A stretch of DNA of 64,000 bases. Origin: a virus. The position numbers were made by a program, and so were the translations under genes. Below the pieces are notes generated by a model. It did not search any database and had not been told where the DNA came from. It saw only the letters and a program-made list of their open reading frames with translations. This document shows positions 30,464-47,646 of the stretch, piece after piece (the stretch's first letter is position 1; each line of letters opens with the position of its first letter). The DNA lies in the IMG/VR virus record IMGVR_UViG_3300042878_000903, positions 45,969-109,968 of that record, one strand, 5' to 3'.

Positions 30464-32269
30464 CTAGACGTCAAAAGATCTTGTGAAGTAGGCTGTGTTG
30501 TCTAGGCCAGTAGCACTTTCTGAGAAAGTTATACCTGGGTCTTGTACGGTAAATGAATTTTCTGAGCAATACAGCTTATAATTCTTTAGAGCCTCTGGGG
30601 CCGTAAATGGGGTTTCATAAAATGCTAAATTGCTATAGGTATTAGATCCACCATATTCCGACCCGCTCTGGTTCTGATTTAATTTAATATTTGTAGCGCC
30701 TGCGTTTAGTACTATTAAAATGTGATGAGATACTCCGCTTAATAAAAATTGGGATACGTTGGTGGATGTAGTTCTATTTACTCCATTTACATATATTGCA
30801 CTAATTCCATTTTTTGTTATTACTCCGCTATTTGTCCAGCTTAGAGAAGCTGAGGCTGATGAGAATAAAATATTTTTTCCTTCTCTTGGAGTAAAAAACA
30901 TCTCTATTGTTCTTGGATGTATTGGGAGGTCTACTGAAAAGCCGTAACCAGATTGCATAGTCAATCCATTATATTTATTTTGCATTCTTACTGGGTAGTT
31001 ATAATAACCCAATGAATAGTCGTAGTCTGAATATATTTTGCCTCCACCATTATCAGAATAAAAATCTTTATTTGAATATAAGTCAATTTCTAATTTATCA
31101 AAGAAAGGGAGGTCAAAAGATGAATCTAGGGTAGTCATTGTTACACGAATGTCTAGTATTGGACCAGATAGGTCTTCATTTTTATTATAATATGGAAGAG
31201 CAGAATTGTTTTTACATACTACCCATGGCTGCCCTGGAACTTTAGCTTCTACTAAAATATTTTGTACATCTTGGCCATAAGATATTCTAGAAGAAACAAT
31301 GTTTTCTGGGTTTGGCACATAAAGTCTTTCTTCAAATACAAAGGTTTTTGTTTCTACTAATTCTGTTTGGGCAAATTCTATTCTTTTATAAGTTGGATTA
31401 TAATATGCATCTCCCGAAACTATAGAATCTAAAGATTTAGATCCAGGATATCTATATGAGACTGCTGGTTTTAAAAATACAGAATTTAATGAAAATAATA
31501 TACCGTTTTTAGAATAAACAATTTGTGAATATTTAGTCTCTTTATACCCAGCTAAATAATGTGCTAAAATTTTTGTGTCTTCTATTTCATAATTATATAC
31601 TGCTGCTGAATCTACTAAAAATCTTTTACCAGTATTTGCTGGACCAATTTTAGGAGTCATAACTGCATTTGTAAATTTAAAGCCTGCCGTAATAAATTTT
31701 TCAGAAGCCAGAGATCCGTTTATGTACAAAGATATTTTATCTTTAGAAAATATTCCCACTATATGCATTACTTTGGTCTTGGCCACTTTAGACCATACCT
31801 TTTCTTGATTTGTGCACTTAAATATTACATTTTCATTTTTATAAAATAGGCCTATATTATTTGTTGCATCTCCAATGATTAAGTATTCTGATAGGTCAGA
31901 AGGATCTGGACTAAACCATATTTCAAATGCGAATGGATTGTCTGGGCTTTTAGAATTAGCAATCCCTAAAGCTTTTAAAGATAGATCAACGTTTTCATTA
32001 ATTTCAGTTCCTCTAATACCAGATCCTACTATTGGAATAACTTCCATATCCGAAGCATCTATCGCATAGCCTTCCATAGAATTTCCAGAATAGTCTACAA
32101 TTGGAAGTCCGCTAACTGCTGCATATGAAATTCCATTATCTTTTAAATCCTGATAGGTAGAATATAATGAAGTTAAGTTACTATATAGACCAGTCTCTCC
32201 AGAACGAACCTCATCTAACAAAAAAAATGCAAGTGGGTTATCTTTTAAGACAGTATATTTATATGACAT
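30464..32269 (-). CDS. virion protein with LamG/concanavalin A-like domain
   Basis: SY...VLKDNPLAFFLLDE, FAFEIWF, HIVGIF...LYING, I..HY. Confidence 0.7.
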   Translation of the reverse strand: MSYKYTVLKDNPLAFFLLDEVRSGETGLYSNLTSLYSTYQDLKDNGISYAAVSGLPIVDYSGNSMEGYAIDASDMEVIPIVGSGIRGTEINENVDLSLKALGIANSKSPDNPFAFEIWFSPDPSDLSEYLIIGDATNNIGLFYKNENVIFKCTNQEKVWSKVAKTKVMHIVGIFSKDKISLYINGSLASEKFITAGFKFTNAVMTPKIGPANTGKRFLVDSAAVYNYEIEDTKILAHYLAGYKETKYSQIVYSKNGILFSLNSVFLKPAVSYRYPGSKSLDSIVSGDAYYNPTYKRIEFAQTELVETKTFVFEERLYVPNPENIVSSRISYGQDVQNILVEAKVPGQPWVVCKNNSALPYYNKNEDLSGPILDIRVTMTTLDSSFDLPFFDKLEIDLYSNKDFYSDNGGGKIYSDYDYSLGYYNYPVRMQNKYNGLTMQSGYGFSVDLPIHPRTIEMFFTPREGKNILFSSASASLSWTNSGVITKNGISAIYVNGVNRTTSTNVSQFLLSGVSHHILIVLNAGATNIKLNQNQSGSEYGGSNTYSNLAFYETPFTAPEALKNYKLYCSENSFTVQDPGITFSESATGLDNTAYFTRSFDV

Positions 32270-32272
32270 GTC

Positions 32273-33385
32273 TTACTTCTCTTCTAGGGCTTTGACTCTC
32301 GCTGTAAGCTCTTGTACTGCTTTAATTAATGGTGATATAAATTGATCGTACCTAAGTCCTTGCATAGAATCTTCTTGTGACATATCCATTTTTACCCAAC
32401 CAGCAAAATCCCCGACACCAGATTCATCTAAGGCTTGTTTTACTTCTTGGGCAATAAGTCCATAATGTGTTCTTGATCCAGGAATAGAAACTATGTCTCC
32501 TTCGACAACTTCTTTGCCGCCTTCAACGAACTTATATTTTACGGGATTTAAATTATTTATAAAGTCAAGACCAAGCGGGGATGTAGCAATATCAGTTTTT
32601 AATCTTTCATCTGAAGTATTAATGGTTCCAGTATTAGAGTATATTGTTTTCCAAAATCTATTTGATGAAACTCCATTTGGTACATCTGTTGGCTGACCTA
32701 TTGAATAAAGATTGTTTGCAAAAGGATACCAGTTAGAATTTACTCCGTATCCAGAAGATGTTGGTATGTTTAAACTTATTGTTGTTGGAATTGGGTCAAT
32801 TGTTGCGCTCTCTCCAGGAATACCTTGAGGTCCAGTTGCGCCAGTTGCGCCAGTTGCGCCTCTTGGTATTGTAAATGAAAAAATAGCATTTGCTGTTGTT
32901 CCAGTATTTGTTACCGAAGCATTTGTTCCAGCATTGCCAGTTGTGGTTGTTCCAACAGCTATTGTTGCTGGGCCTTGTGGACCTACTGGTCCTTGTATGC
33001 CTTGTGGACCTTGAGGGAGAACTAAATTTAATGTTTGTGAAGGGCTGGTTCCAGTTATTGTTGCACTAGCAGAACCTCCCTCAACAACCGTTCCAATATT
33101 TAAAACATTGGATGGGCCAGGGCCACCAATAATTCCATCAACACCTCTTGGTAATGTTAAATTTAATATAGCATTAGATGCAGTTCCTACATTAACAACT
33201 GATGCTGGTGTAGCCGCACTAACAGTAGTTACTGTACCCACCGCTAACGTGCCTGAAGGGCCCTGTGGGCCTGGATTAGCGGCTATAAAGGTTGCAATGT
33301 CGGCACCAAGGTTTCCAAGGTCTCTAGGGACGTCTGGGGTGTCTGTATAGTCTGGAAATCTCCAGCCATTTACTCCTGTACTCAT
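32273..33385 (-). CDS. collagen-repeat tail fibre with peptidase S74 chaperone
   Basis: GPQGPQGIQGP and GATGATGATGPQG Gly-X-Y runs; TSDERLKTDI...GLIAQEV...RYDQFISPLIKAVQEL. Confidence 0.85.
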   Translation of the reverse strand: MSTGVNGWRFPDYTDTPDVPRDLGNLGADIATFIAANPGPQGPSGTLAVGTVTTVSAATPASVVNVGTASNAILNLTLPRGVDGIIGGPGPSNVLNIGTVVEGGSASATITGTSPSQTLNLVLPQGPQGIQGPVGPQGPATIAVGTTTTGNAGTNASVTNTGTTANAIFSFTIPRGATGATGATGPQGIPGESATIDPIPTTISLNIPTSSGYGVNSNWYPFANNLYSIGQPTDVPNGVSSNRFWKTIYSNTGTINTSDERLKTDIATSPLGLDFINNLNPVKYKFVEGGKEVVEGDIVSIPGSRTHYGLIAQEVKQALDESGVGDFAGWVKMDMSQEDSMQGLRYDQFISPLIKAVQELTARVKALEEK

Positions 33386-33405
33386 TTTTTTATTATACCA
33401 CCTAT

Positions 33406-34056
33406 CTATTTAATATATATGTGTGCTGGGCTCATGTATCTAATGCCAGACACAATAGGCTTTACTTCGTGAATATATGGCTCTTGTGATGGGAACATTA
33501 TTAGGCTTCCAGCTTTTGGTTTTATAGTAACATTGTGATTTGGGAAACTAATTTCTCCACCCTCATAATCATCATTAACATATGCCACTAAAGAAAATGC
33601 TAAATCCTTGTTGCCATCCTGTCCATCAAAATGTGGGCCCATTGATTGTCCTTCATTCCAGGCTTTTATTGGTATGCGATCAAGACTTAAATTATATTTA
33701 TTTCTATCTAATTTTCTAGCGTCTAAATATCTATCAGTACACATTTGAAAGGCCATCAAAAAACTATTGGCAATATAAAGAGTTTTTTTATCTACTATAT
33801 CTGATCCAGTAGTTGTTTTTAACGCAGATCTATTTATTGTTTTTGTTTTACCATATACCAGACTAGAATCATTGCTTGCCGTCCAATTTTCCCATTTGGA
33901 TATCCTGGAATACGACTCTGGCTCTTCGTCTATTTTGTCTATAAAATCTTTTAAATGTTCTGGAAAGCTTAATGCATTTTCCCAGTACCAGATATCTGTT
34001 CCCAAAATTTTAAGATCAAACATTATAAACTGCTTAAACTCTACATTATTTTGCAT
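33406..34056 (-). CDS. prolyl-4-hydroxylase-type 2OG-Fe(II) oxygenase
   Basis: HFD...YVNDDYEGGEI.F...HEV...R. Confidence 0.88.
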   Translation of the reverse strand: MQNNVEFKQFIMFDLKILGTDIWYWENALSFPEHLKDFIDKIDEEPESYSRISKWENWTASNDSSLVYGKTKTINRSALKTTTGSDIVDKKTLYIANSFLMAFQMCTDRYLDARKLDRNKYNLSLDRIPIKAWNEGQSMGPHFDGQDGNKDLAFSLVAYVNDDYEGGEISFPNHNVTIKPKAGSLIMFPSQEPYIHEVKPIVSGIRYMSPAHIYIK

Positions 34057-34057
34057 G

Positions 34058-34810
34058 TTAGCCCTCTACTTCTGATGCTGGATACACTTCTCCACGGGGG
34101 GTTATTCTTAATCCTTTATTTCTATAGTCTTCCCACTCAATAGCCTCATCTGCTTGCATTGCTCTAACCTCAGCAAGCTCTGCCGCCCAAGCATCTCTAA
34201 CTTCTTGCGGGTAATCACTTTCTTCTCTATCGTCCCAGAATGATCCTAGAGTATATCTAATAGATTTTTTAACTGTGGTAACTTCGTGCATGTTATGGAA
34301 TCCTCCAGCAAATGTTACTAGAGTTCCAGTTTTTGGAACAATTGTTAATCCATGCTTAAAGTTTAAAATACCATCTTCAAAGTCATCGTTTAAATAAAGA
34401 AAGGTTGCATATCTACTTCTAGTAAATGCTCCTGAAACTCCATCATTAGAAGTATTGTCTGAGTGCATATTTGCAAAAGCTCCTGGTGCCCATCTTTGAG
34501 AGTGCCAGCTTATCTGCGACATTTGTGCTGAATCTTTTCCAGCCATATCTGCAGTAGCATCTATAACTCTTTGTCTAAGATCTACAAAAAAATCTCCTGG
34601 TAAGCCACAGGCAATTGTGTCTGGGTCATTTAGCTCTGGAGTGCCTGATGAGTATGACTCATAAAATGAAATTGGCATCCACTTTAATTGTTCTTTTTCC
34701 ATCTTAATAGCTAGAACATCAATAATTGATTTACATTCATCTGGGGTTAAAAAATTGTCATATTGCACAATATCTGGCTTGTGTCTAGTTATAACCATAT
34801 CTCTTTCCAT
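34058..34810 (-). CDS. prolyl-4-hydroxylase-type 2OG-Fe(II) oxygenase
   Basis: YDNFLTPDEC, HSD, YLNDDFEDG, HEV...RY. Confidence 0.88.
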   Translation of the reverse strand: MERDMVITRHKPDIVQYDNFLTPDECKSIIDVLAIKMEKEQLKWMPISFYESYSSGTPELNDPDTIACGLPGDFFVDLRQRVIDATADMAGKDSAQMSQISWHSQRWAPGAFANMHSDNTSNDGVSGAFTRSRYATFLYLNDDFEDGILNFKHGLTIVPKTGTLVTFAGGFHNMHEVTTVKKSIRYTLGSFWDDREESDYPQEVRDAWAAELAEVRAMQADEAIEWEDYRNKGLRITPRGEVYPASEVEG

Positions 34811-34812
34811 AA

Positions 34813-35712
34813 TTACATCATTCCTTTTTCTGCTTTAGCATCAGATGGGACACCAAATTCTTTAGCATCAAATGGGACACCAAATTGTTTTTCATCATAT
34901 GGGACACCAAATTGTTTTTCAACATGTTCCTCATATGTAACTGGAACTCCGTCATTAAAATAAACCATGTTTCTTTTATCATCGTATTCAATTCTTTGTT
35001 GCTCCATTTTTGCCCACTTGTAAGCACCAAATTTTCTTTGGTTTGCAAGCCATTCTTCTGTGCCATTATGAGGAGTCATTATAAAGTTTCTAACAAAAAA
35101 TTTCTCATTGCTGTTAATTGTTTTTACCCCATGATAGTATGGCTCTGTTGATGGAAATACTAAAATATCTCCAGCCTTTGGCTTATGATTAATAAATTGC
35201 CCATCAATATAAAACTCTATATCTCCGCCATCGTAATCATCATTAATATACATTGTGCAGGTAATTGAAAATTTCTCCCCAGGCATATCTTTTTGTGATG
35301 TTATGTGATCTGTATGATATTGCATTGTAAGCTTACTTTTAAGATTATCAACTCCTGCATGATATTTAGAATAAGATGATCCGCTAAAACGCCAGCCTTC
35401 TGGCAATTTTATATTGTGTCTTTCTATGTAGTCCGCTATAACCTTACTATATGCCGATTCAACTTCTTCAACGAATGCCTTTTCTTTAATAAACATTTCT
35501 GTAGATTGAATTTCTGCAGAAACTTCTCTCATATCTTTTTTCTGAGTATACGTTCCAAAATGGGCCCAAGGATCCCAGGTCTTTAAAAAATACTTTCCTT
35601 CTGAAGTTTTTTCTGAAGAATTCATGACTTCATATAGTTGTGCTGGATCTTTTAAAACATTTCTATAAACATCAACTTTTGGGTACAGTTCTATATAGTC
35701 TAATTGGCTCAT
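34813..35712 (-). CDS. prolyl-4-hydroxylase-type 2OG-Fe(II) oxygenase with C-terminal 9-aa repeats
   Basis: HTD, YINDDYDGGDI.F, HGV...K; start at MSQLDY (ATGA overlap). Confidence 0.88.
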   Translation of the reverse strand: MSQLDYIELYPKVDVYRNVLKDPAQLYEVMNSSEKTSEGKYFLKTWDPWAHFGTYTQKKDMREVSAEIQSTEMFIKEKAFVEEVESAYSKVIADYIERHNIKLPEGWRFSGSSYSKYHAGVDNLKSKLTMQYHTDHITSQKDMPGEKFSITCTMYINDDYDGGDIEFYIDGQFINHKPKAGDILVFPSTEPYYHGVKTINSNEKFFVRNFIMTPHNGTEEWLANQRKFGAYKWAKMEQQRIEYDDKRNMVYFNDGVPVTYEEHVEKQFGVPYDEKQFGVPFDAKEFGVPSDAKAEKGMM

Positions 35713-36386
35713 GGTTGTTTTTCTCCCGTATGTTTTTGTATCGTCCAAAAGAATGGAGATGTAAATCTATTTCCAGAGATTACTGGACGTACTCCATGTG
35801 TATAATTCATATCACCTGGAAAAAAATATGCTGCTCCTGCAACTGGCTGAAATTCAATTCCGTGCTGTGGGAAATATAATTCTCCGCCTTCATAGTCATC
35901 GTTAAAATAAAATAAGCCAGCCAAATCATACCAAGGAAAATCATTTGCTCTTCCTTTTTCTGGGCCAGAATGAAATTCTTTATCTGCATGCGGCTCTTGT
36001 CTGGCACCAACAGGCCATCTAACAATTGCTGGACCAGTTTCTTTTGCATCAACATTAAAAAATGCATCTACTTCTATTTTAAGTCTTGCTATCATGCTAT
36101 AAATTAATTCTAATATCGATGGGTCTGACGCCATTAAAGAATTGTAGGTGCAAACTCTATTTTCCCAAACTGTGTGGTCATATAAAACTAGGCCATCGGC
36201 ATCTCTATGGGTTTCTGTTATGTCCCAAATTTTATTATTAAGGGAAAAGTCCATCAATCTTTTACGCTCTTCTATTGTAAGGAAATCTTTTATTTCTACT
36301 ATGTTATTTATGGAATTACCAAAAAATCCAGACGGAGTAATAGATTTTGGCTTTTGATCTTCTGTCCATTGGTTTGCTAGCTTCAT
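35709..36386 (-). CDS. prolyl-4-hydroxylase-type 2OG-Fe(II) oxygenase
   Basis: HAD, YFNDDYEGGELYF, HGV...R. Confidence 0.88.
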   Translation of the reverse strand: MKLANQWTEDQKPKSITPSGFFGNSINNIVEIKDFLTIEERKRLMDFSLNNKIWDITETHRDADGLVLYDHTVWENRVCTYNSLMASDPSILELIYSMIARLKIEVDAFFNVDAKETGPAIVRWPVGARQEPHADKEFHSGPEKGRANDFPWYDLAGLFYFNDDYEGGELYFPQHGIEFQPVAGAAYFFPGDMNYTHGVRPVISGNRFTSPFFWTIQKHTGEKQP

Positions 36387-37111
36387 TTATCTATTATATC
36401 ATTTCCCTTGTTTAATTCATGATTGACTTTAAGCCTAATAGCTTTTACTTGATGACCGCCTAGGACATTTTTAAGGTGATCTACAGCATCTCTATAAAAA
36501 TTAGACCAAATTGCTTTTCTGTTTAAATCGTAAATAACATTAGAATACTCGTTAGAGTCAAATTTAGGGTCTGGCAAAGACTCTACTTTATCAAAATTTA
36601 TTTCTGAGTTTTGTAAAGCCTCTAAATCTATTGGTAGTATAGCAATTATTGGTGTTCCTGCTTTTATGGTAATAACTTCGTTTGGTTTAGTTATCATCCA
36701 GGCACATGGCAATTCTCCTCTAAAAAATGATGTACTCATTAAGGTTGTAAAAGGAACGGCACCGTCAATGAATAAATTTGGAACTGGCATAGATAGAAGA
36801 CTTAAATTTTCTTCAGTAGAAAACATTAGGCCCGTATTAAAACTTACTGTTCCATTAGCTCTACCAGAATAAGCATACTTTTCACCAGACAAAATTTTAA
36901 CGTGATCTGGAGTGCTGTCTGTTACGCCATCCCATATAAAAGATATATCTTCTGGAAAAGATATTCCCCAGCCAAGCTGGTTAGTGAGTCCTACTGGAAA
37001 ACATTTATATGCATGAGATTCCCAAGTATTATCCATCCAATCTCTTTTAATTGAAAGAGGAAAAACTTCTCCGTAACCATTTCTTATTGTATAGGCTTTA
37101 ATTTTATGCAT
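36383..37111 (-). CDS. DUF6065-like protein
   Basis: RDWMD...HAYKCFPV..TNQLGW.I..P...WDG motif. Confidence 0.65.
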   Translation of the reverse strand: MHKIKAYTIRNGYGEVFPLSIKRDWMDNTWESHAYKCFPVGLTNQLGWGISFPEDISFIWDGVTDSTPDHVKILSGEKYAYSGRANGTVSFNTGLMFSTEENLSLLSMPVPNLFIDGAVPFTTLMSTSFFRGELPCAWMITKPNEVITIKAGTPIIAILPIDLEALQNSEINFDKVESLPDPKFDSNEYSNVIYDLNRKAIWSNFYRDAVDHLKNVLGGHQVKAIRLKVNHELNKGNDIIDK

Positions 37112-37817
37112 ACGAGTTTTTGCCAGTTTTTTCATCTTCTACTAACCATCTGGCTCGTGCTTCAAAAAATTCTTGTCTGTGAGCATGATCATTATAATCA
37201 AGCATTGTTACAATAGAAAACTTCATGCCATCTTCTACTGGCATTGCTCTATGCGAAAATAGATAGGTAGATGGGAAAATATATAAATCGCCAGCTCTTG
37301 GCTTAATGTTTAGACCTAATTTAGGAAAAAATAAATTGCCTCCTGCATAATCGTCATTTACATAAGCAACTAATGATACTGTGGCACTATATGAAAATCC
37401 GTGGTCGGCATGCTCTTGGAAGTGTTGTCCTTTGCCGTATCTAATACAGTTCATAACTTCCCAATAATTCATCTTTACACTATATTTAGTACAATAATCT
37501 TGAACTGCTACATCCTGTGCTTTTTTTAAATCAGACCATAAATCTGCAACTAGTTTCTGGGTTTCATTGACTGGATTAATTATCTCTCCAATTTTAATAT
37601 CTTCACAGTCTCTATATGATGGTCTTTTTTCACTATACCCAACAAAACCAAATGTCCAACTGTATCTGGAATCTGCCTCTTTATCAGCAGAATTTCCTAT
37701 TGCGTTTAATCTATTAATAACGTCTAAATCTTTTTTAATTACATCTCTGTATACCCACACGCCTGGGAAAAGCTCTTCCTTTGAAGAAAATCCATATTGG
37801 TCATTTATAGTAGTCAT
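37104..37817 (-). CDS. prolyl-4-hydroxylase-type 2OG-Fe(II) oxygenase
   Basis: HADH, YVNDDYAGG.L.F, SHRA.PV..G.K. Confidence 0.88.
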   Translation of the reverse strand: MTTINDQYGFSSKEELFPGVWVYRDVIKKDLDVINRLNAIGNSADKEADSRYSWTFGFVGYSEKRPSYRDCEDIKIGEIINPVNETQKLVADLWSDLKKAQDVAVQDYCTKYSVKMNYWEVMNCIRYGKGQHFQEHADHGFSYSATVSLVAYVNDDYAGGNLFFPKLGLNIKPRAGDLYIFPSTYLFSHRAMPVEDGMKFSIVTMLDYNDHAHRQEFFEARARWLVEDEKTGKNSYA

Positions 37818-37856
37818 GCCTTTATTGTATCATTTTGAATTTACAAATACAATAGC

Positions 37857-37891
37857 AAAAAGAGGGGGGCATTGTGTGCCACCCCTCTTTT
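37857..37891 (-). terminator. terminator after FN3-PPFF-Hint gene
   Basis: AAAAAGAGGGG...CCCCTCTTTT hairpin. Confidence 0.65.
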
Positions 37892-37899
37892 ATAGATAT

Positions 37900-39105
37900 T
37901 TAAGCTATTACTAGGAAGGAATTAACGATAAACCATGGATTTGGAGATGTTCTAACATCGTACACGGTAGATTCTGTTTCACTCTTTTCAACTGAGGTTA
38001 CTGGAGTTCCTTGGACTAGTCCATTTGAATCTACTCCTATGATTATTTCTCCTATCTCAATTTCTCCTGCATTCTTATAGGTAATACCATTTGAGGTTTT
38101 TACAAATAACGGCTGGGTTTCTGAGTAGTCTTTACCTCTGTAATTAAATCCAATTAGCTTTCCAGTTTTTTCTGTTATTGAAATAACTTCTGAATTTGTA
38201 AGCTTAACTGTTGATTCTAAATGTCCAGATGTTTTATTTGCGGTTATAGATTCAAGATTAATATTAGAGTTATCAACTGTTATTACTTGATCTCCAATTT
38301 TAATATCTTTAGCTTTTACCCATCCAGTATTGGTGAAAATAACTGATTCTGGTGATAAACACTTACCCTTAAATCCTGGTGGGGAAAAGAACCCTGGTGG
38401 GGCAAAGAACCCTGGTGGGGCAAAGAACCCTGGTGGGGCAAAGAACCCTGGTGGGGCAAAGAACCCTGGTGGAAAGAACGGTGGAAAGAACGGTGGAAAG
38501 AACGGTGCTTGAGTTGTAATTTCCGCTGTATTTGCTGAAGCTGCTGACCGACCATTAGCATTATCTGCATAAACATTATAATACTGAGATGTATTAGCAG
38601 TATCATTGATGGTTATACTTAGGGATGCTGTATTTCCATTTGTTCCATCATTACCTGCAACATAGTAGTTAGTTATTGCGGATCCACCATTTGCTGGCTC
38701 TGTCCAAGTAATTGTGTTTTGGTTAACTCCTGCAGTTGCGATTGGGCTTTGTGGAGCTTGAGGTACGGTTGTTGCAGTAATGCTATTTGAGGCAGCAGAT
38801 GCTGCACCAGTTCCTACTGCATTTGTTCCCGTTACCGTAAATGTATATGCTGTATTTGATTGTAAACCAGTTACAGATATTGGAGAAGATGCTCCTGAAG
38901 CAGTATACGATCCTGGAGAGGATGTTACTGTAAAGGATGTAGCAGCAGGTGAATTTGCTGGCAAAGAGAACGTTACGTCGGCCCGTCCATTGTTATATGC
39001 ACGACCAGATGGTACGTTTGTTGCTGTTACTGACTCTGGTGCCCGTGGCTCCAAAAAGTCATTTGATGCCTGTGCCTTTTTACCGAATTTCTTACCTACT
39101 GCCAT
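37900..39105 (-). CDS. FN3-domain protein with Pro/Phe repeats and C-terminal Hint domain
   Basis: Two FN3-like domains; (PFFP)3-(PGFFAP)n; C249 LSPESVIFTNTGWVKAKDIKIGDQV...VYDV...WFIVN. Confidence 0.8.
   Translation of the reverse strand: MAVGKKFGKKAQASNDFLEPRAPESVTATNVPSGRAYNNGRADVTFSLPANSPAATSFTVTSSPGSYTASGASSPISVTGLQSNTAYTFTVTGTNAVGTGAASAASNSITATTVPQAPQSPIATAGVNQNTITWTEPANGGSAITNYYVAGNDGTNGNTASLSITINDTANTSQYYNVYADNANGRSAASANTAEITTQAPFFPPFFPPFFPPGFFAPPGFFAPPGFFAPPGFFAPPGFFSPPGFKGKCLSPESVIFTNTGWVKAKDIKIGDQVITVDNSNINLESITANKTSGHLESTVKLTNSEVISITEKTGKLIGFNYRGKDYSETQPLFVKTSNGITYKNAGEIEIGEIIIGVDSNGLVQGTPVTSVEKSETESTVYDVRTSPNPWFIVNSFLVIA
38374..38507 (-). repeat. 12-nt and 18-nt coding tandem repeats (PFFP, PGFFAP)
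   Basis: cggtggaaagaa x3 and ccctggtggggcaaagaa-type x5 on the + strand. Confidence 0.95.
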
Positions 39106-39138: not shown

Positions 39139-40974
39139 TTACGCCATCAAGTCGCCGTAGACAACCCATGTATTTGCTGCTCTCTTAAAGAGAGTACAAG
39201 ATGACCAGGTTGTACGAAGCTTTAGGCCAGGTGTTGCGTTAACTGTAACTGTTCCTGATACTGGGGCAATTGTTACTTGTCCAGCTCCAGTTTGAAGAAT
39301 ATCAATAGATGTTCCGATTGGGAAGTCTAGAGTTGCGTCTTCTGGTATTGTTAAGGTTAGAGGTGATCCTGATCCCATTTCGATTAGATCATCTCTTTCA
39401 GTTAGTGATGAAAGTGTATATGATGCTGTTTTTGCAACGATTGGTGTTAAAGAATCTACCTTTAATCCAAGGCTGGTTGTTACTGATGCTGCAAAGTTTG
39501 CGTCATCTCCAAGTGCTTGAGCAAGTTCATCAAGTGTATTCATTGCTGCTGGTGCACCAGATATAAGTGCGCTTACCTGTGATGTTGCGTCTGCAATTGC
39601 TTCAGATTTTGCTGTTGCGATTGCTGAAGACTGTGCTGTTGATACTGGCTTATTAGCATCAGAAGTATTGTCAACATTTCCAAGTCCAAGTGTTGCTGGT
39701 GTTACTGCTGCAACCTCTGACTTAAGTGCTAGAAGTGCTGTATCTGCAATTCCATGAACATTTGTAGTGTCTGCTTCATGGGCTGAAAGAGCGGTAGCTG
39801 CTGCTGTAATTTGTGTTTGAACTGATGATGTAACTCCATCTAGGTATCCAATTTCTGTTGAAGAAACTGTACCAATTGATGTTGTACTTGGAAGAGTTAC
39901 TGTACCAGTAAATGTTGGTGAGGCCAAATCTGATTTAGCTGCAAGAGATGCACCTAGTCCAGAAATTTTGTCTTGGTGAATTGCTGCAGTAGCACTTACA
40001 TGATCATTTGTAATTTGAAGATCTGCAATTTTTTCTGCAGTTATTGCATCAACTGCAATTTTATCTGCAGTTACTGCACCATTTAGAATTTTTACTGTAG
40101 ATATTGCATCGGTTGCTAAATCTGCTGTTTCTACAGAGCCTGCAGGAAGTGTTACTGATCCTGTTACTGTTAAGTTAGTTAAGCCGATATCTGTTGCTGT
40201 AAGGTTTCTAAGCTCAAGATCATCTAGGCCTCCTTGGCTAAAATTAATTGTAGTGGTTGGTGCATCGGTTACTCCTGTAAAGAGTTTCCATTTATTAGCA
40301 GATGCATCTCTTGCAAATCCTGTGTGATTAGCAACTCCATCATTGTGTTTAGCTACAAATCCTAGATCTAAAGCATTTCCTGCGTTGGTTGATGCTAATG
40401 CAATTAGTGGATCTTCTGTTGTAAAGTTAGCTGTATCTAATGTTACAGTTGTTCCATTAACAAAAAGATTTCCAGCTAATGTTAAATTTTCTCCTGATAT
40501 GCTTCCACTTGTTGAAATATCTGTTGCTAGTCCTGTTAGCTTTAATTGTGCCTCTGGAACCTTAATGTTTCCATCAAGTGAAGCAACACCATTTGCTGAT
40601 CCACGATCTGAATTCTCTAAGTATGTGCTTGCTGTTGAATTTGTAAGTCCAGTTACTGCTGCATCAACATAGGCTACTGTTGCTACTACTGCTGAATCTA
40701 CAGAAATTGTAATTGTATTTGCGCCATCATTATAAGTCTTTGTTAAACCTGCACCCATTGTAAGTGCTGTATTGATTGCGTCTTGTGAAATTTCTCCAAT
40801 TTCAGGTGCATCTGCTGCTACGTAAGAAAGGGAATTCCATGCGGTGGATCCATCTCCAACTTTAATTTTTCTAGTGTTTGTTTCAACGCCTAGCTCTCCT
40901 GCTGCAAGTATTGGATTTACTCCAGACCAGTCTGTTGCTGATCCTCTTCGAACTTGAATTCTTACTGTTGACAT
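39139..40974 (-). CDS. tail fibre with Mtd-N-like N-terminus
   Basis: RIQVRRG...W...NPILAAGELGVET...KVGDG; GLGNVDNTSD; C-terminal W.VYGDL. Confidence 0.8.
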   Translation of the reverse strand: MSTVRIQVRRGSATDWSGVNPILAAGELGVETNTRKIKVGDGSTAWNSLSYVAADAPEIGEISQDAINTALTMGAGLTKTYNDGANTITISVDSAVVATVAYVDAAVTGLTNSTASTYLENSDRGSANGVASLDGNIKVPEAQLKLTGLATDISTSGSISGENLTLAGNLFVNGTTVTLDTANFTTEDPLIALASTNAGNALDLGFVAKHNDGVANHTGFARDASANKWKLFTGVTDAPTTTINFSQGGLDDLELRNLTATDIGLTNLTVTGSVTLPAGSVETADLATDAISTVKILNGAVTADKIAVDAITAEKIADLQITNDHVSATAAIHQDKISGLGASLAAKSDLASPTFTGTVTLPSTTSIGTVSSTEIGYLDGVTSSVQTQITAAATALSAHEADTTNVHGIADTALLALKSEVAAVTPATLGLGNVDNTSDANKPVSTAQSSAIATAKSEAIADATSQVSALISGAPAAMNTLDELAQALGDDANFAASVTTSLGLKVDSLTPIVAKTASYTLSSLTERDDLIEMGSGSPLTLTIPEDATLDFPIGTSIDILQTGAGQVTIAPVSGTVTVNATPGLKLRTTWSSCTLFKRAANTWVVYGDLMA

Positions 40975-43441: not shown

Positions 43442-43681
43442 TTACCATTTTGACAATGGGCAGGTTGCTGCTTCCATTGCTGTCTTCATTTTCATTAGAC
43501 AGCCACATTGTTTACATTGTGTAGTTAATGATATGAACTCAGGACATCCCCTGCAAATATTTAGTCTTTGTTCTTTTTTTTCATCAGTAGTCCATACGGT
43601 ATTTGGATTTAGCATATCCCATGGCTTGACGGTATTTGGATCAACTAGGTTTGCTTTTATTGTTTTCCACCTTGAAGTCAT
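43442..43681 (-). CDS. Cys-rich small protein (DUF6171-like)
   Basis: RLNICRGC...QCKQCGCLM..KT......CPLSKW. Confidence 0.65.
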   Translation of the reverse strand: MTSRWKTIKANLVDPNTVKPWDMLNPNTVWTTDEKKEQRLNICRGCPEFISLTTQCKQCGCLMKMKTAMEAATCPLSKW

Positions 43682-43949: not shown

Positions 43950-46142
43950 TTATGCTATGGCTATAGTAGAATTAACAATAAACCAAGGTTCTGGGGAAGT
44001 TCTAATATCATAAACCTTTGAATCAAAATCATCTACTTCAATTGATTCTACTACAATATTTGAGACTGACCCGCTTGAATCTACATTTATAATTACATCC
44101 CCAATATTAATATCTCCAGCATTTCTATATTCTATTCCTTCTGAATTTTTAATAAATATAGGCTGATTAATAGAATAGTTTTTACCAATTTTATTAAATC
44201 CAATTAATGTTGAAGTTTTTTCTGTTATAGAAACAACCTTTACATTTGAAAATTCAATAACGGATGGTAATTCCTGTGATGTCTTATTTTGAGATACAGA
44301 ATTAAGGTTTATGTTTGAACGGCTAATCGATATAAGGTCATCTCCAACAAAAATATCTTTTGCTTTTACTAAACCATTTTTAGTAAAGACAAGTCCGTCT
44401 GGTGATATACAGGCTTTACCTCCCTTAAATGATGGTGGGAAGAACGGTGGAACGTTTGGTTCAAAAATTGGTGGGAAGAACGGTGGTATGCCACCATCGA
44501 CTCCAAAACTTGGTGGGAAGAACGGTGGGAAGAACGGTGGGAAGAACGGTGGTGCAAAAACTGGTGCTGGGTCAGTTGATTGACATGCTGGATAACTTGT
44601 CCCAAACGAACACTGACGAGAGTAGCCGCTACCAGATGCGGACGTGTCGGAACCAGGTTTTGTGTAGCTGCAATTACCTACGCCAGCTCCAGGACTAGAG
44701 GTTGTACAATGCCATTCGCTTTGTATGCCTATTGGTGCGGGATCTGTTGATTGGCATGCTGGATATGTTCCAGTGTTGTTGTATATACACTGACGAGAGT
44801 AGCCGCTACCAGATCCTGAATTATCAAAACCAGGGGCTGTGTAACTACAGTTACCTACGCCAGCACCTGGAGAAGAGGTTGTGCAATACCATTGAGAAGC
44901 TGGTGCTGGGTTAGTTGATTGACATGCTGGATAAGTTGTTCCAAATGTGCACTGACGAGAGTAGCCGCTACCAGATGCGGAGTTATCAAAACCAGGGTCA
45001 GTATAACTACAGTTGCCTACGCCACCGCCGTTGGTAGAGGTTGTGCATTTCCATGTGTTTGGTGCTGGAGGATATGTTATGGTTACGGCTGGAGAAGAAA
45101 GCCAGGCGGTCTCTGTAAATCTTGGAGATGTTCCTATAATTAATACTACAAAAGATCCAAATGTATCTGGAGAAGCACCAGGTCGATCTATGTCTAAGAA
45201 ATTAGTGCTAGGACTTGAAGATGCAGAGCTTGCATATACTGAACCATCATTGTACACTGTCCAACTAGTTACAGTTATGTTTGTAGCAGACCAAACCAAT
45301 TTTCCTCCGTAACTGTAAGAAAGCATTCCTGCTGCAACTGAAGGTTTGTTTGGCTTTAAATCGGTAACCGATGCATTTTTGCCGTATCCGCTTAATGACG
45401 TTCCAGAAACATTGGATGTATTCAATGGATTAATTAATATTCCTAAAGTTCCTGAAGCGGATCCTGTGTCAATTGTAAATTTACATGTAGTACCTGATGT
45501 AGAATATACACCTTTTGCAGAATCTGTATTATTTACCATACTAGTAACTTCTGTAAATGCTACTTCTGGTCCTTGGTATTGTATATAATAATCATTAGCG
45601 CCTTTTACTTTTTCCCATGTAAACTCTACTACGCCATTTGACACAACATTAACAGTTATATCTCCTAAATTAGCGGGAGCAATTACTGGACTTGATAAGG
45701 TATATATATCTCCTGAATTTTTACCATCTGCATTAGTAGCCGAAACTTTACACCTAACCGCATAGCCAACATATTTTAATGTTTGTTGAGAATCCCATTC
45801 GTCTTCAGATAATGCCAAAGAGCTTGTTGTTTTATCAAGTATGTTAGACCAATTAGATGTAGGATATGGAGCTTTTTGCCATTGATATTCAAATGTTGTT
45901 GGTGAATTTTCCCAAGTACCATTTGTTGTTAAAACTGTTTGTTCTGCAGCATAAAGAAATGATGAACCTTGCAAAGAAAGAGTTGGCAAAACTGTATTGA
46001 CTGGAACTATTCCTAGTAGATTTTTCCACTCAGACCCATTCCAAACATAAGCCGCCTTAGAATCGTTCCAAGATGTTCCATCATGGATTTGAATCTTTTT
46101 TAAAGGATTCCAACTGGAACCATCAAAAATGTTTAGCGGCAT
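43950..46142 (-). CDS. adhesin-like protein: Ig/FN3-like N-terminus, three Cys-rich repeats, PPFF repeats, C-terminal Hint domain
   Basis: PVNTVLP...GTW...FEYQW Ig-like; 3 x four-Cys repeat; (PPFF)n; C578 ISPDGLVFTKNGLVKAKDIFVGD...VYDI...WFIVN. Confidence 0.8.
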   Translation of the reverse strand: MPLNIFDGSSWNPLKKIQIHDGTSWNDSKAAYVWNGSEWKNLLGIVPVNTVLPTLSLQGSSFLYAAEQTVLTTNGTWENSPTTFEYQWQKAPYPTSNWSNILDKTTSSLALSEDEWDSQQTLKYVGYAVRCKVSATNADGKNSGDIYTLSSPVIAPANLGDITVNVVSNGVVEFTWEKVKGANDYYIQYQGPEVAFTEVTSMVNNTDSAKGVYSTSGTTCKFTIDTGSASGTLGILINPLNTSNVSGTSLSGYGKNASVTDLKPNKPSVAAGMLSYSYGGKLVWSATNITVTSWTVYNDGSVYASSASSSPSTNFLDIDRPGASPDTFGSFVVLIIGTSPRFTETAWLSSPAVTITYPPAPNTWKCTTSTNGGGVGNCSYTDPGFDNSASGSGYSRQCTFGTTYPACQSTNPAPASQWYCTTSSPGAGVGNCSYTAPGFDNSGSGSGYSRQCIYNNTGTYPACQSTDPAPIGIQSEWHCTTSSPGAGVGNCSYTKPGSDTSASGSGYSRQCSFGTSYPACQSTDPAPVFAPPFFPPFFPPFFPPSFGVDGGIPPFFPPIFEPNVPPFFPPSFKGGKACISPDGLVFTKNGLVKAKDIFVGDDLISISRSNINLNSVSQNKTSQELPSVIEFSNVKVVSITEKTSTLIGFNKIGKNYSINQPIFIKNSEGIEYRNAGDINIGDVIINVDSSGSVSNIVVESIEVDDFDSKVYDIRTSPEPWFIVNSTIAIA

Positions 46143-46152
46143 TTCAGGCTCC

Positions 46153-47646
46153 TTAGTATTGTATGTAAATATCTCCAGCAGAATTACCGCTTGCAGGTGG
46201 TGTTAAGCTTGTGCTATATGTAATTTTATTTATGTTAGCAGAAGAGCTTCCGTTAGTATATGTTCCGTTAATATTATTAGATGCAGCAGTGGTGGCAGCT
46301 GTAATAGATGATGTGATGGCTGATGGAATTGCAGACTCTAGTATTTTACCGTTTGAATCTAGCCCAGCATATCCATTATTTTCATTTCTTTCAGATTCTG
46401 GCTGGTACCCGCCTAATGAGTTATCAATACTATTTTTGGCTGTATCAGTATATGCTTTTGCTTCGGTTAAAGCGGCTGTAAGATTGGCAGAAGTTGCATA
46501 TCCAGGAATTACTGGAGTTCCAGTAAATGTCGGCGAAGCAATTGGAGCATAAGTTGTTGCTGCCAAGTCAGAAGACAATTTTGTTCCAACCAAAGTTGTT
46601 AATGTTGATGCACCAGTTTGATCTGATGCAATATAATCTGCAATTTCTTTAAGTGTATCAAATGAAGCTGGTGCCGCATTTACAACATTTGCTATTGCTG
46701 CAGAAATATCTGATGTTCTTGCTATGGAAGATGGAATCAGTGATAGTGGTATTAAAGCAGAAGCATCTAGTCCAGCTACGCCATTTAACATATTCCTATC
46801 TGACACTGGAATATATGCGCTAGAAATTTCTGTTCTTAAATCATCTACAGCTGAAAGAGCAGCATTTAAAGAAGCAGTACGTGCAGCATTTGTTGCTGTA
46901 ACAGCTCTTGCATTTGTAAAGTATAAATTAGTTCCTTCTGGTAATTGAGTTGTTGATGTAATTGGAGAAGGTACTGTAAAATTAGCTAATGAAGAGTCAA
47001 CATAACTTCTGGTAGTAGTAATTAATGGGTCTACTATTGCTGATACTCTATTTGTTGTAAAATATAGGTTTGTTCCTTCTTCTATGTCTGAAGTAGTAAT
47101 AAGATTAATTGCCGTGTTTATTTTTGTATCTGCAATTTGTCCCGCTAAAGTTACTGCGTTTGTAGATTTTGTTGTTGCATCTGCCGCTGCGGTAGTAATT
47201 GCTTCTTGGAATTTTGATGTTGTGTGTAAATTAGCTGAACTTAAAGCTTGTGCTGCAGATCCGTAAACATCAAAATATCCGTCTCCTGCAGTCCTTGCTC
47301 TTGCATTAGTAAAAAATAAATTTGTTCCTTCTAAAAGACTTGATGTTGTAAATGGACCAGAATTATTTATAGCATTTTGAATTGCCGTAGCGGCTTCTGT
47401 GTCTAAAGAAATTTGATCTGGTAATTGTGATAAAGGTATTTTGCCGTCAGAATTTAATGTAGCAATTCCATTTGCTTGTCCTGGTTTAAATGCATAGTTT
47501 GTAAGAAGATTCCATCTTTGGGTTCCGTTACCTATTTTAAATTTAAGAGTATCAGTTTCTATTCCTATTTCACCGTTTAAAAGAAGTGGATTGTTCGCTG
47601 TCCAATTTGCTGCGGTGTCTCTTCTTAATTGAATTTTAAATGCCAT
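46153..47646 (-). CDS. tail fibre with Mtd-N-like N-terminus
   Basis: KIQLRRDTAANW...NPLLLNGEIGIETDT; EGTNLYFT repeats; GVAGLD repeats. Confidence 0.8.
   Translation of the reverse strand: MAFKIQLRRDTAANWTANNPLLLNGEIGIETDTLKFKIGNGTQRWNLLTNYAFKPGQANGIATLNSDGKIPLSQLPDQISLDTEAATAIQNAINNSGPFTTSSLLEGTNLFFTNARARTAGDGYFDVYGSAAQALSSANLHTTSKFQEAITTAAADATTKSTNAVTLAGQIADTKINTAINLITTSDIEEGTNLYFTTNRVSAIVDPLITTTRSYVDSSLANFTVPSPITSTTQLPEGTNLYFTNARAVTATNAARTASLNAALSAVDDLRTEISSAYIPVSDRNMLNGVAGLDASALIPLSLIPSSIARTSDISAAIANVVNAAPASFDTLKEIADYIASDQTGASTLTTLVGTKLSSDLAATTYAPIASPTFTGTPVIPGYATSANLTAALTEAKAYTDTAKNSIDNSLGGYQPESERNENNGYAGLDSNGKILESAIPSAITSSITAATTAASNNINGTYTNGSSSANINKITYSTSLTPPASGNSAGDIYIQY

Follow-up and report, generated by a model that had tools for sequence, protein, structure and literature searches.

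Repetitive proteins rich in Pro and aromatic residues are familiar from plants, where extensins are made with P4Hs, and from mussel foot proteins; in both, hydroxylations alter stiffness and adhesion. The P4H of PBCV-1 performs sequence-specific hydroxylation of Pro-containing repeat peptides, but no hydroxyproline was detected in PBCV-1 virions and the enzyme's role is not known (PMC7019647). Cyanophages carry multiple divergent PF13640-type genes per genome, whose function was not investigated (PMC9602691), and DNA repair or 2OG balance was proposed earlier for the cyanophage 2OG oxygenases (PMC3037559). Bacterial intein-like (BIL) domains, for their part, cleave rather than splice (PMC7765530). 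Our literature search found no published description of a module like the one reported here, in which a cluster of P4H-like oxygenases follows a gene for a Pro/Phe-repeat protein.

The window (the whole stretch of DNA analysed, 64,000 nucleotides) belongs to a record of a ~110-kb, actinophage-like siphovirus, and the source phage is probably an uncultured one that infects Actinobacteria in a lake. The module is retained in ~200 related contigs, all of its carriers fall within one phage group (probably ~110-kb siphoviruses of freshwater Actinobacteria), and among them it sits in the fibre-gene region, a conserved position. Between positions 32273 and 39105 every gene is on the minus strand, at the coordinates that a first-pass annotation of the same DNA had given. 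The features of the module and its surroundings are as follows:

46153..47646, minus strand: second Mtd_N fibre protein, 497 aa, immediately 5′ of the second tract-Hint gene (PF18454, E 4e-13)
43950..46142, minus strand: second tract-Hint protein, 730 aa, outside the range of the first-pass annotation (translation, alignment)
39139..40974, minus strand: Mtd_N fibre protein, 611 aa, immediately 5′ of the tract gene (PF18454, E 1e-14)
38506..39105, minus strand: N-terminal part of the tract protein, aa 1-200, a basic peptide with an NDFLEP motif and two FN3 domains (Pfam, AF2)
38362..38505, minus strand: Pro/Phe tract PFFPPFFPPFFP(PGFFAP)5..PGFKGK, aa 201-248, candidate substrate (translation)
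37903..38361, minus strand: C-terminal Hint (BIL-like) domain (profile and structure)
37866..37885, minus strand: terminator-like hairpin between the tract gene and oxygenase A, function putative (consensus scan only)
37104..37817, minus strand: oxygenase A, 237 aa, P4H-like (PF13640, E 7e-13)
36383..37135, minus strand: DUF6065 protein, 250 aa, dUTPase-like fold, after oxygenase A (PF19541)
35709..36386, minus strand: oxygenase B, 225 aa (PF13640, E 2e-7)
34813..35748, minus strand: oxygenase C, 311 aa, start codon TTG (PF13640, E 8e-9)
34058..34810, minus strand: oxygenase D, 250 aa (PF13640, E 3e-7)
33406..34056, minus strand: oxygenase E, 216 aa (PF13640, E 2e-11)
32273..33385, minus strand: S74 fibre protein, 370 aa, with short Gly-X-Y runs (PF13884, E 8.5e-14)
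30464..32269, minus strand: LamG-domain protein, 601 aa (PF13385, E 2.7e-12)

The five oxygenases all match PF13640 (2OG-FeII_Oxy_3) in Pfam, with E values from 7e-13 to 3e-7 and 31.9-49.7 bits against a curated cut-off of 27. Their catalytic motifs are intact: in an alignment of the five, H136, D138 and H189 are invariant, and a basic residue (K/R) follows the distal His by 9-10 residues in every one. Pairwise identity among them is only 21-29%, and oxygenase C carries a tail of its own, a C-terminal (K/E)QFGVPxD repeat present three times. The genes of the oxygenases and of DUF6065 overlap or lie 1-2 nt apart (4 nt are shared by the DUF6065 stop and the start of oxygenase B), and the earlier picture of a tight block of five divergent P4H-type enzymes with HxD..H..K/R is borne out by profile and alignment. 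The best solved relative of oxygenase A is the B. anthracis P4H (3itq, E 5e-6) and that of oxygenase E is the PBCV-1 P4H (5c5t, E 8.5e-5); these matches to solved prolyl 4-hydroxylases weakly suggest a relationship at the level of the family. In NCBIfam, the oxygenases reach only PRK05467, a generic family of Fe2+-dependent dioxygenases, and that far below threshold.

The remaining gene of the block was correctly recognized as DUF6065-like, matching PF19541 with E 5e-29 (101.9 bits against a Pfam cut-off of 26.6). Its AF2 model (pLDDT 86.7) resembles dUTPases: VIA gave Z 10.5 and 13 matches with Z of at least 8, nearly all dUTPases and one a herpesvirus tegument protein, every PDB match listed by Foldseek was a dUTPase, and the viral structure library agrees. 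A profile search against the PDB gave no sequence match below E 0.25, the best dUTPase being that of WSSV (E 0.8). Read by eye, the family consensus retains a motif-IV-like strand (KAGTPIATII), and neither the catalytic Asp motif nor the Gly-rich C-terminal motif V was seen in it. Homologues fill more than 3,126 clusters, nearly all unnamed and two bearing an antitoxin label taken from a source, and a literature search for "DUF6065" found no paper.

The gene upstream of the block (37900-39105, minus strand) encodes a 401-aa protein made of two FN3 domains, a Pro/Phe tract and a C-terminal Hint domain, an architecture that the first-pass annotation had read correctly, as Pfam, the translation and the Hint profile and structure attest. 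The fn3 match has E 1.7e-8, AF2 pLDDT exceeds 94 across aa 20-200, and the modelled FN3 pair resembles titin FN3 tandems (Z 15.7); in the N-terminal peptide F17, L18 and P20 are invariant among 31 orthologues. The tract consists of (PFFP)3 and then (PGFFAP)5, and its translation, PFFPPFFPPFFP(PGFFAP)5, is followed by FKGK-Cys. The underlying DNA is made of tandem arrays (18-nt x5.4 and 12-nt x3.3, with 98-100% matches). Since AF2 pLDDT is 38-55 over the tract, it has no confident fold; among orthologues Pro-rich tracts range from 27 to 163 aa. The putative terminator beyond the gene has a 6-bp stem, four of whose pairs are GC, and a T-rich tail after it. In the 730-aa protein, PFFP repeats are accompanied by three Cys-rich modules and by a Hint domain that shares 56% identity with the first one, and the gene carries 162/177 nt tandem arrays; in relatives a lone oxygenase lies 3′ of this second gene, and it is absent here.

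Hint and intein matches in the 401-aa protein were below threshold in Pfam. The Hint profile nonetheless found the bacterial intein-like domain 2lwy in the PDB (E 1.7e-9), and the AF2 model of residues 246-401 matched the NpuDnaB intein (Z 16.9), a BIL domain (16.7) and Hedgehog HhC (16.5), superposing on mini-inteins, BIL and HhC with an rmsd of ~2 A over ~130 residues; from profile and predicted structure together, the identification is firm. Among 31 orthologues at least 90% retain Cys249, the predicted Cys1 nucleophile, and three have Ser. In the window's copy the block-B His is replaced by Gln (SETQ), and the protein terminates at ..LVIA-stop with no C-extein and no terminal His-Asn. A splicing intein was considered and rejected, as block-B TxxH, the terminal His-Asn and a C-extein nucleophile are all missing; judged by these residues, the domain would be at most an N-cleaving Hint. 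Relatives are rare (67 representative clusters among the 1.8 billion proteins searched), and in nearly all of them the domain is C-terminal, with aromatic/Pro repeats before it. Hint is an optional cap, found in 46 of 106 orthologues, and the earlier idea that Hint autoprocessing exposes the peptide is therefore not central. Mean oxygenase number is 5.7 per locus with Hint and 6.3 without it, which indicates that the cluster is associated with the tract and not with the Hint domain.

What ties the cluster to the tract is comparison across related phages. Loci were gathered in four independent ways (by Hint, by the N-terminal domain, by the DUF6065 profile and by the bare PFFP DNA pattern), and whichever route was used, almost all related contigs had the tract gene ahead of the cluster. 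The order A-DUF6065-B-C-D-E is collinear at 123 loci; these loci, each with at least five oxygenases, contain type A in 123/123, B in 123/123, C in 78/123, D in 118/123 and E in 105/123. Collinear order in spite of 21-29% identity fits a multi-step pathway better than random accretion. For 93 Pro-rich orthologues the DNA extends at least 6 kb downstream; in 87 of these, DUF6065 and no fewer than three oxygenases lie within 6 kb, and two of the remaining six have the cluster ~5.5 kb downstream. The cluster accompanies none of 11 orthologues with a Pro-poor tract of the FTPFG type, and an FTPFG-type genome that is 94% complete retains only dispersed oxygenases. The FTPFG orthologues are followed by two or three paralogues of another family, probably PF13759-like (the nearest named ESM clusters are PF13759, 2OG-FeII_Oxy_5, score 0.96). 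The richer a tract is in Pro, moreover, the more oxygenases there tend to be: without correction for phylogeny, rho between oxygenase number and Pro fraction is 0.70 for a set of 71 orthologues and 0.57 when the Pro-rich ones are taken alone. The annotation had proposed to look whether PPFF genes and 2OG/DUF6065 clusters occur together and in synteny; they do, 87/93 as against 0/11. On a tree of the N-terminal domain, however, the switch of repeat type is one event (treekit gives only one independent pair) within one phage group, so the linkage of tract and cluster is inferred and should be read as suggestive.

It was also suggested earlier that the cluster lies between two proline-rich substrates, the second being a downstream collagen fibre. 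The tract does precede the cluster, and the 370-aa fibre that follows it does have Gly-X-Y runs together with a Peptidase_S74 intramolecular-chaperone domain (residues 258-323) and matches to PHROG tail-fibre and tail-spike families. If this fibre were the main substrate, in the fashion of animal collagen, the enzymes would be acting on the classical P4H substrate, and a Gly-X-Y fibre, of as many as 111 triplets among the relatives, does come after the cluster in many of them as well as in this phage. We consider this hardly likely at all. Collagen P4H hydroxylates the Y position, and over 1,303 triplets in 33 fibres adjoining clusters Pro occupies 30% of X and 3% of Y positions, which makes these fibres poor canonical P4H substrates; the window's fibre has at most 5-6 triplets per run; and the fibre is not constant, a ~680-aa non-collagen ORF taking its place at several loci with a full cluster. 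Around the module, related loci have an orthologue of the 611-aa fibre ahead of the tract gene, and the LamG protein, between fibre and portal gene, is syntenic in close relatives. A very unlikely reading, though one that the dUTPase-like fold of DUF6065 keeps alive, is that the cluster modifies nucleotides or DNA, with DUF6065 as a dUTPase-family enzyme and the oxygenases oxidising a base or nucleotide. Beyond the model, it can draw on a second DUF6065-oxygenase pair in the genome that adjoins RecA-like and DnaE replication genes. Against this, sequence search brings up no dUTPase better than E 0.8, the consensus read by eye shows neither the catalytic Asp motif nor the Gly-rich one, the oxygenases are P4H-like and not of the TET/JBP or AlkB types, and the cluster lies among fibre genes, co-varying with a protein repeat.

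A more substantial rival, which we still regard as unlikely, holds that the oxygenases are accessory genes of a type expanded in aquatic phages, with targets that belong to the host or are other phage components (translation factors, for example, or small molecules, or the 2OG/succinate balance); their adjacency to the tract gene would then reflect a variable fibre region that collects genes, followed by inheritance. Of the ten PF13640 matches in the genome, five lie away from the cluster, in the company of stress and metabolic genes, and cyanophages have up to 24 such genes, their role not known (PMC9602691, PMC3037559). Cluster size ranges from two to at least nine among relatives, and the correlated switch is phylogenetically n=1. 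In sister phages an RNR gene and lone oxygenases share the region, between the fibre genes and the portal, so the neighbourhood of the tract gene is not purely structural, which also counts against a role on the tail. Accessory expansion does not readily account for a paralogue order held at so many loci, for a cluster missing exactly where the tract is Pro-poor while dispersed oxygenases remain, for the different putative oxygenase family that then follows the FTPFG orthologue, or for the tracking of oxygenase number with tract Pro fraction.

Since the cluster is kept only where the polymer is Pro-rich, the polymer is the likeliest target, and we give an even chance to the reading in which the oxygenases hydroxylate the Pro/aromatic tail of this fibre-region protein. 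In the first gene product, a short conserved peptide at the N terminus is succeeded by two FN3 domains and then by an unstructured tail of Pro and Phe/Tyr. Here the tail is capped by a BIL-type Hint, which could at most release itself by cleavage at Cys249 and so make ..PGFKGK the new end of the tail. The six tightly packed genes that come next, presumably co-expressed with it late, would supply five anciently diverged P4H-like oxygenases and DUF6065, which may have some part in the process. Acting post-translationally on the Pro-rich tail, each oxygenase would hydroxylate prolines, perhaps other residues too, in its own sequence context, turning a hydrophobic polymer into a hydroxyproline-rich tail on a fibre-associated, possibly virion-borne protein and altering its stiffness, solubility or stickiness. 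A fuller version is possible but rather doubtful: a dedicated multi-enzyme hydroxylation pathway of 5-10 P4H-like oxygenases with a dUTPase-fold partner, devoted to its own disordered Pro/Phe/Tyr polymer, would make an extensin- or mussel-foot-like tail for host adhesion or virion mechanics, with Hint as a removable or ligating cap and with FTPFG sisters using another oxygenase family. If true, this would give the large 2OG-oxygenase families of aquatic phages their first assigned function and would be the first case of a hydroxylated phage structural protein. A RiPP cluster, which would start from a short precursor (leader plus core) and release a small product, was rejected: the putative substrate is 401 aa long and includes two FN3 domains modelled with confidence, and neither Pfam nor NCBIfam revealed a RiPP recognition or leader-peptidase family. 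The RiPP-like label thus holds as an analogy only, and the first-pass interpretation as a whole is partly supported, its synteny standing and its two-substrate, Hint-exposure and RiPP parts weakened.

Set beside the known systems, extensins and mussel foot proteins belong to eukaryotic secretory pathways and offer an analogy of mechanism, with no homology of substrate. The Hint domain shares its fold and N-terminal Cys nucleophile with BIL and Hedgehog domains and, as BILs do, ends a variable protein; members of the sister clade end in ..VHNK, as A-type BILs do. Unlike those domains, the window's Hint has Gln for the block-B His and lacks a terminal His-Asn and a C-extein, has no sterol-recognition region, and always follows an aromatic/Pro repeat. 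The S74 chaperone, present in the 370-aa neighbour, likewise caps the C terminus of a phage fibre protein and cleaves itself, but the Hint fold and chemistry are unrelated to it, and Hint would cleave via a thioester at Cys1. PBCV-1 A085R (5c5t) is likewise a virus-encoded small P4H-like 2OG oxygenase, but it is a single enzyme of a giant algal virus with no adjacent dedicated substrate gene, DUF6065 or Hint, whereas here a bacteriophage has five collinear paralogues beside a Pro/Phe polymer. Dispersed oxygenase copies are common to the aquatic (cyano)phage sets and to the present genome; what differs here is a fixed, ordered subset that sits in the fibre region and is linked with DUF6065 and with a protein as candidate substrate.

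The window covers 64 kb at the 3′ end of an IMG/VR virus record, which is 109,968 bp long and complete by CheckV's rating. Nearly all genes of the fibre-to-portal region lie on the minus strand. The first-pass annotation had described a tract-Hint FN3 protein, five oxygenases with a DUF6065 gene, and a Gly-X-Y fibre. That arrangement was confirmed on the minus strand, where the genes follow one another in this order of transcription:

46153-47646, minus strand: Mtd_N fibre gene, first in transcription order
43950-46142, minus strand: 730-aa protein combining three Cys-rich modules with PFFP repeats and a Hint domain, second in transcription order
between the 730-aa gene and the second Mtd_N fibre: several small or fibre-like ORFs
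39139-40974, minus strand: second Mtd_N fibre, directly before the 401-aa gene
37900-39105, minus strand: 401-aa protein (FN3 domains, tract, Hint domain)
33406-37817, minus strand: oxygenase A, DUF6065 and oxygenases B, C, D and E, in that order
32273-33385, minus strand: 370-aa fibre that carries an S74 chaperone domain and short runs of Gly-X-Y
after the 370-aa fibre gene: LamG protein, then portal, protease-scaffold and capsid genes

We read the phage as a siphovirus of low-GC Actinobacteria: its portal is 56-59% identical to those of ~130-kb Streptomyces siphoviruses, it encodes a WhiB-like protein and a 2,499-aa tape-measure ORF, and its GC content is 33-42%. The setting is probably freshwater, a judgement that draws in part on the titles of MAGs carrying the module. 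Searching 50,697 cultured phage records at the DNA level matched only a 54-nt fibre-chaperone stretch. A DUF6065 profile search of GTDB genomes returned seven contigs with the phage module (L141-L147; GC 32-40%) and no others. These were binned in MAGs of unrelated phyla (Bacteroidota, Verrucomicrobiota, Acidimicrobiia, Alphaproteobacteria) and are probably mis-binned phage DNA, not bacterial homes of the module.

In an AF2 model of the 401-aa protein built on 31 orthologues, the two FN3 domains (pLDDT >94) and the C-terminal domain (pLDDT ~90) are confident, and the tract between them (residues 201-248) is unstructured (pLDDT 38-55). Ahead of the FN3 domains, residues 1-20 and their counterparts in orthologues form a strongly conserved peptide, M..K..G..S...NDFLEP (F17, L18 and P20 are invariant across the 31 orthologues), which could be an assembly signal, a targeting signal or a protease site. 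The modelled C-terminal domain resembles mini-inteins, a bacterial intein-like (BIL) domain and a Hedgehog autoprocessing domain (Z 16.5-16.9), and its profile matches the BIL 2lwy (E 1.7e-9). Cys1 is conserved. In the window's Hint clade, Gln takes the place of the block-B His and ..LVIA-stop closes the protein; a sister clade has retained the His together with a terminal ..VHNK, like that of A-type BILs (PMC7765530). Judged by these residues, the Hint domain of the 401-aa protein cannot splice; cleavage or chain transfer at FKGK|C is the most it could do.

A search with this Hint domain by itself found only 67 relatives among 1.8 billion representative proteins; in nearly all full-length ones it is C-terminal, with a basic patch and aromatic/Pro repeats immediately before it. 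For the HNK-clade Hint protein P0027, no relative was found in IMG/VR. The end of the protein varies: among 106 distinct complete orthologues, 46 carry Hint, 24 a short Cys-rich tail and 36 neither, and cluster size is independent of the type of cap. About 12 Hint-less repeat ORFs end ..F-K-stop, the same residues that precede Cys1 in the 401-aa protein, which fits the Hint domain being a removable cap. The tail of many Hint-less orthologues is 15-25 aa long with 6-8 Cys (e.g., ..CSCGYCWRCSVCCPGRSCAC). In the 730-aa protein, three tandem modules of ~55-59 aa with four Cys each (window 44561-45054; period 162/177 nt, 74% matches) stand just before the PFFP repeats. Apparently one and the same tract can be closed by either a Cys-rich cap or a Hint cap. 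Downstream of the 730-aa gene, a small Cys-rich DUF6171 protein (window 43442-43681; 79 aa, Pfam E 1e-6) and a 76-aa ORF occupy the place that a lone oxygenase takes after the 730-type Hint gene in several relatives.

The five enzymes had been described as divergent P4H-type oxygenases with an HxD..H..R/K signature, and this description held: all five pass the Pfam cut-off for PF13640, and all keep the HxD...H triad plus a Lys or Arg 9-10 residues past the distal His, at only 21-29% pairwise identity. The best solved relatives are peptidyl-prolyl 4-hydroxylases, from B. anthracis for oxygenase A (3itq/5hv0, E 5e-6) and from chlorovirus PBCV-1 for oxygenase E (5c5t, E 8.5e-5). Because both matches are weak, and because NCBIfam gave only far sub-threshold matches to a generic Fe2+-dependent dioxygenase family (PRK05467), "P4H-like" is a fair label at the level of family, not of substrate specificity. 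Genes within the cluster overlap or lie 1-2 nt apart, and a consensus scan places a terminator-like hairpin between the 401-aa gene and oxygenase A. The C-terminus of oxygenase C (window 34813-34905) carries (K/E)QFGVPxD(A/E)K three times; the orthologous enzymes of relatives, at 284-296 aa, are shorter. Outside the window, G000:C1:3800-19000 of the full record holds an apparent oxidative-stress/redox gene run, read by eye from N-terminal sequences (catalase-peroxidase-like, 687 aa; glutathione-peroxidase-like; thioredoxin-like), with three more PF13640 oxygenases interspersed.

DUF6065 is modelled well (pLDDT 86.7) and resembles trimeric dUTPases (Z 10.5); dUTPases account for all the Foldseek PDB matches listed and for many matches among viral models. 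By sequence nothing was significant, the best dUTPase being the WSSV enzyme (E 0.8), and, read by eye, the family consensus seems to lack the catalytic dUTPase motifs, with one strand motif-IV-like. Invariant residues include R31, W33, Y43, C45, R92, N120, S134, S136, Y214 and H228. The protein could be a trimeric oxygenase partner or adaptor, could itself be another tailoring enzyme, or could bind nucleotides. Its homologues form more than 3,126 clusters at 90% identity, nearly all viral, on contigs of up to 117 kb and almost none with a functional name; tblastn against the 50,697 cultured phage records gave no match, so the family points to an abundant, uncultured phage group. Fusions sought among longer proteins were not found (weak evidence), nor did a literature search find a paper mentioning DUF6065.

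Related loci were gathered through the Hint domain, distant orthologues, a DUF6065 profile in GTDB genomes, and a bare DNA pattern, PFFPPFFPPFFP, in IMG/VR (at least 119 loci); all were scored with HMMs made from the window's own proteins. The orthologues follow a uniform plan: the NDFLEP N-terminus leads into two FN3 domains and then a Pro/aromatic tract, which spans 27-163 residues in Pro-rich orthologues; oxygenases and one DUF6065 come next. Clusters hold 2-9 oxygenases within 8.5 kb, mostly 5-7, and the order A-DUF6065-B-C-D-E holds in the 123 loci with at least five (A in 123, B in 123, D in 118, E in 105, C in 78). The co-occurrence proposed by the first-pass annotation was borne out: of 93 Pro-rich orthologues, 87 are accompanied within 6 kb by DUF6065 and three or more oxygenases, and in two of the other six the cluster lies ~5.5 kb off. 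Oxygenase number follows tract Pro fraction (rho 0.70 overall, 0.57 among Pro-rich tracts), a correlation inflated by common descent. A further PFFP match falls in a 455-kb virus record (L202). Three other fragments contain PFFP ORFs but no oxygenase; at 13-31% completeness they are uninformative.

The contrast comes from 11 orthologues with FTPFG(A)FG repeats, in which the tract Pro fraction is 0.14-0.17 versus 0.30-0.48 in the Pro-rich type: none (0/11) has the cluster beside it. One such genome, 94% complete, lacks the fibre-region cluster; its five PF13640 genes are dispersed, with a single weak DUF6065 also outside that region. After the orthologue, these phages carry 2-3 paralogues of an unnamed 209-236-aa family:

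L131:11330-13325: tandem paralogues, after the orthologue
L133:11282-13265: tandem paralogues, after the orthologue
L135:11298-12589: tandem paralogues, after the orthologue

They share the motifs W.N, WHDH, FHGYY, GHPH and RITIAYD by eye. Pfam gave no match, nor did hhalign of their alignment against the five oxygenases; against the PDB, it gave WD40 and formin matches only, which we judged spurious. The nearest named ESM-Atlas clusters are PF13759 (2OG-FeII_Oxy_5; score 0.96), and these features together with the motifs offer a lead that the paralogues may be PF13759-type. Repeat type and putative enzyme family change together, as a substrate-enzyme relation predicts. Among the fibre genes of the sister phages there is also a GT25-family glycosyltransferase (L131:3748-5185; Pfam E 1e-12) and a second possible one, for which fibre proteins could be glycosylation targets.

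The case for the collagen-like fibre, proposed earlier as a second substrate, was weakened. Collagen P4H acts on Pro in the Y position, and across 1,303 Gly-X-Y triplets Pro fills 30% of X positions and 3% of Y. In the window's 370-aa fibre no run exceeds 5-6 consecutive triplets, against as many as 111 triplets in relatives, and in some loci a full cluster has a non-collagen ORF after it in place of the fibre. For these reasons the fibre is unlikely to be the main substrate.

The favoured reading, to which we give an even chance, is that the Pro/aromatic tail of the fibre-region FN3 protein is the target of the oxygenase battery, which would hydroxylate it, and that Hint is an optional cap able to remove itself. 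Oxygenases A-E would produce a hydroxylated tail on the FN3 protein, and the Hint domain, where present, would remove itself from the tail end. The hydroxylase-cluster interpretation of the first-pass annotation is supported in part. The main alternative, rather unlikely, is that the co-location is inherited and these are accessory oxygenases acting on other targets. The N-terminal-domain tree requires only one change to FTPFG repeats, not the several independent switches that polyphyly would give, and treekit counts one independent pair on it. Since one change suffices, we make no claim of statistical co-evolution, and shared ancestry inflates the correlations. Nor is the region purely structural: at its edge, the window has a class II (B12-type) ribonucleotide reductase gene (50255-52189, read by eye), and in sister phages such a gene (L131:13450-15480; Pfam RNR_Alpha, E 9e-32) and a lone oxygenase lie between orthologue and portal, making it a mix of structural and metabolic genes. 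Five further PF13640 genes lie outside the cluster in the window phage genome. Beyond the window, at G000:C1:39075-41016, one small ORF separates a second DUF6065-like gene (231 aa) from a PF13640 oxygenase (314 aa) in a stretch adjoining RecA-like and DnaE genes, so the pairing is not limited to the fibre region. That the cluster modifies nucleotides has a low probability; the dUTPase-like fold predicted for DUF6065, which may bind nucleotides, speaks for it.

If the tail is hydroxylated, a structural protein of a bacteriophage would be shown to undergo enzymatic tailoring; DUF6065, a family of more than 3,000 sequence clusters, would gain a function, and the known Hint domains a variant that has a block-B Gln and stands at the very protein end. 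The oxygenases could possibly be used for bacterial production of hydroxyproline-containing polymers. The number of 2OG-Fe(II) oxygenase genes in aquatic phages ranges from a few to two dozen, and to our knowledge the roles proposed for them have never been tested; here a candidate substrate gene adjoins the enzyme genes, which offers a concrete and cheap way to do so. Literature searches found no description of Pro/Phe repeat-Hint proteins (PFFP/FFPP, phage Hint fibres), of phage fibre hydroxylation or of a phage prolyl hydroxylase module like this one. Earlier proposals for phage 2OG oxygenases were DNA repair and 2OG balance (PMC3037559), and PF13640-type expansions are documented in cyanophages, with functions "not specifically investigated" (PMC9602691). 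The closest precedent is PBCV-1 P4H, a viral P4H whose hydroxylation substrates are peptides of Pro-rich repeats; no biological role is known for it, and hydroxyproline was not detected in virions (PMC7019647). The system described here differs from it in being a conserved multi-enzyme module, and in belonging to bacteriophages.
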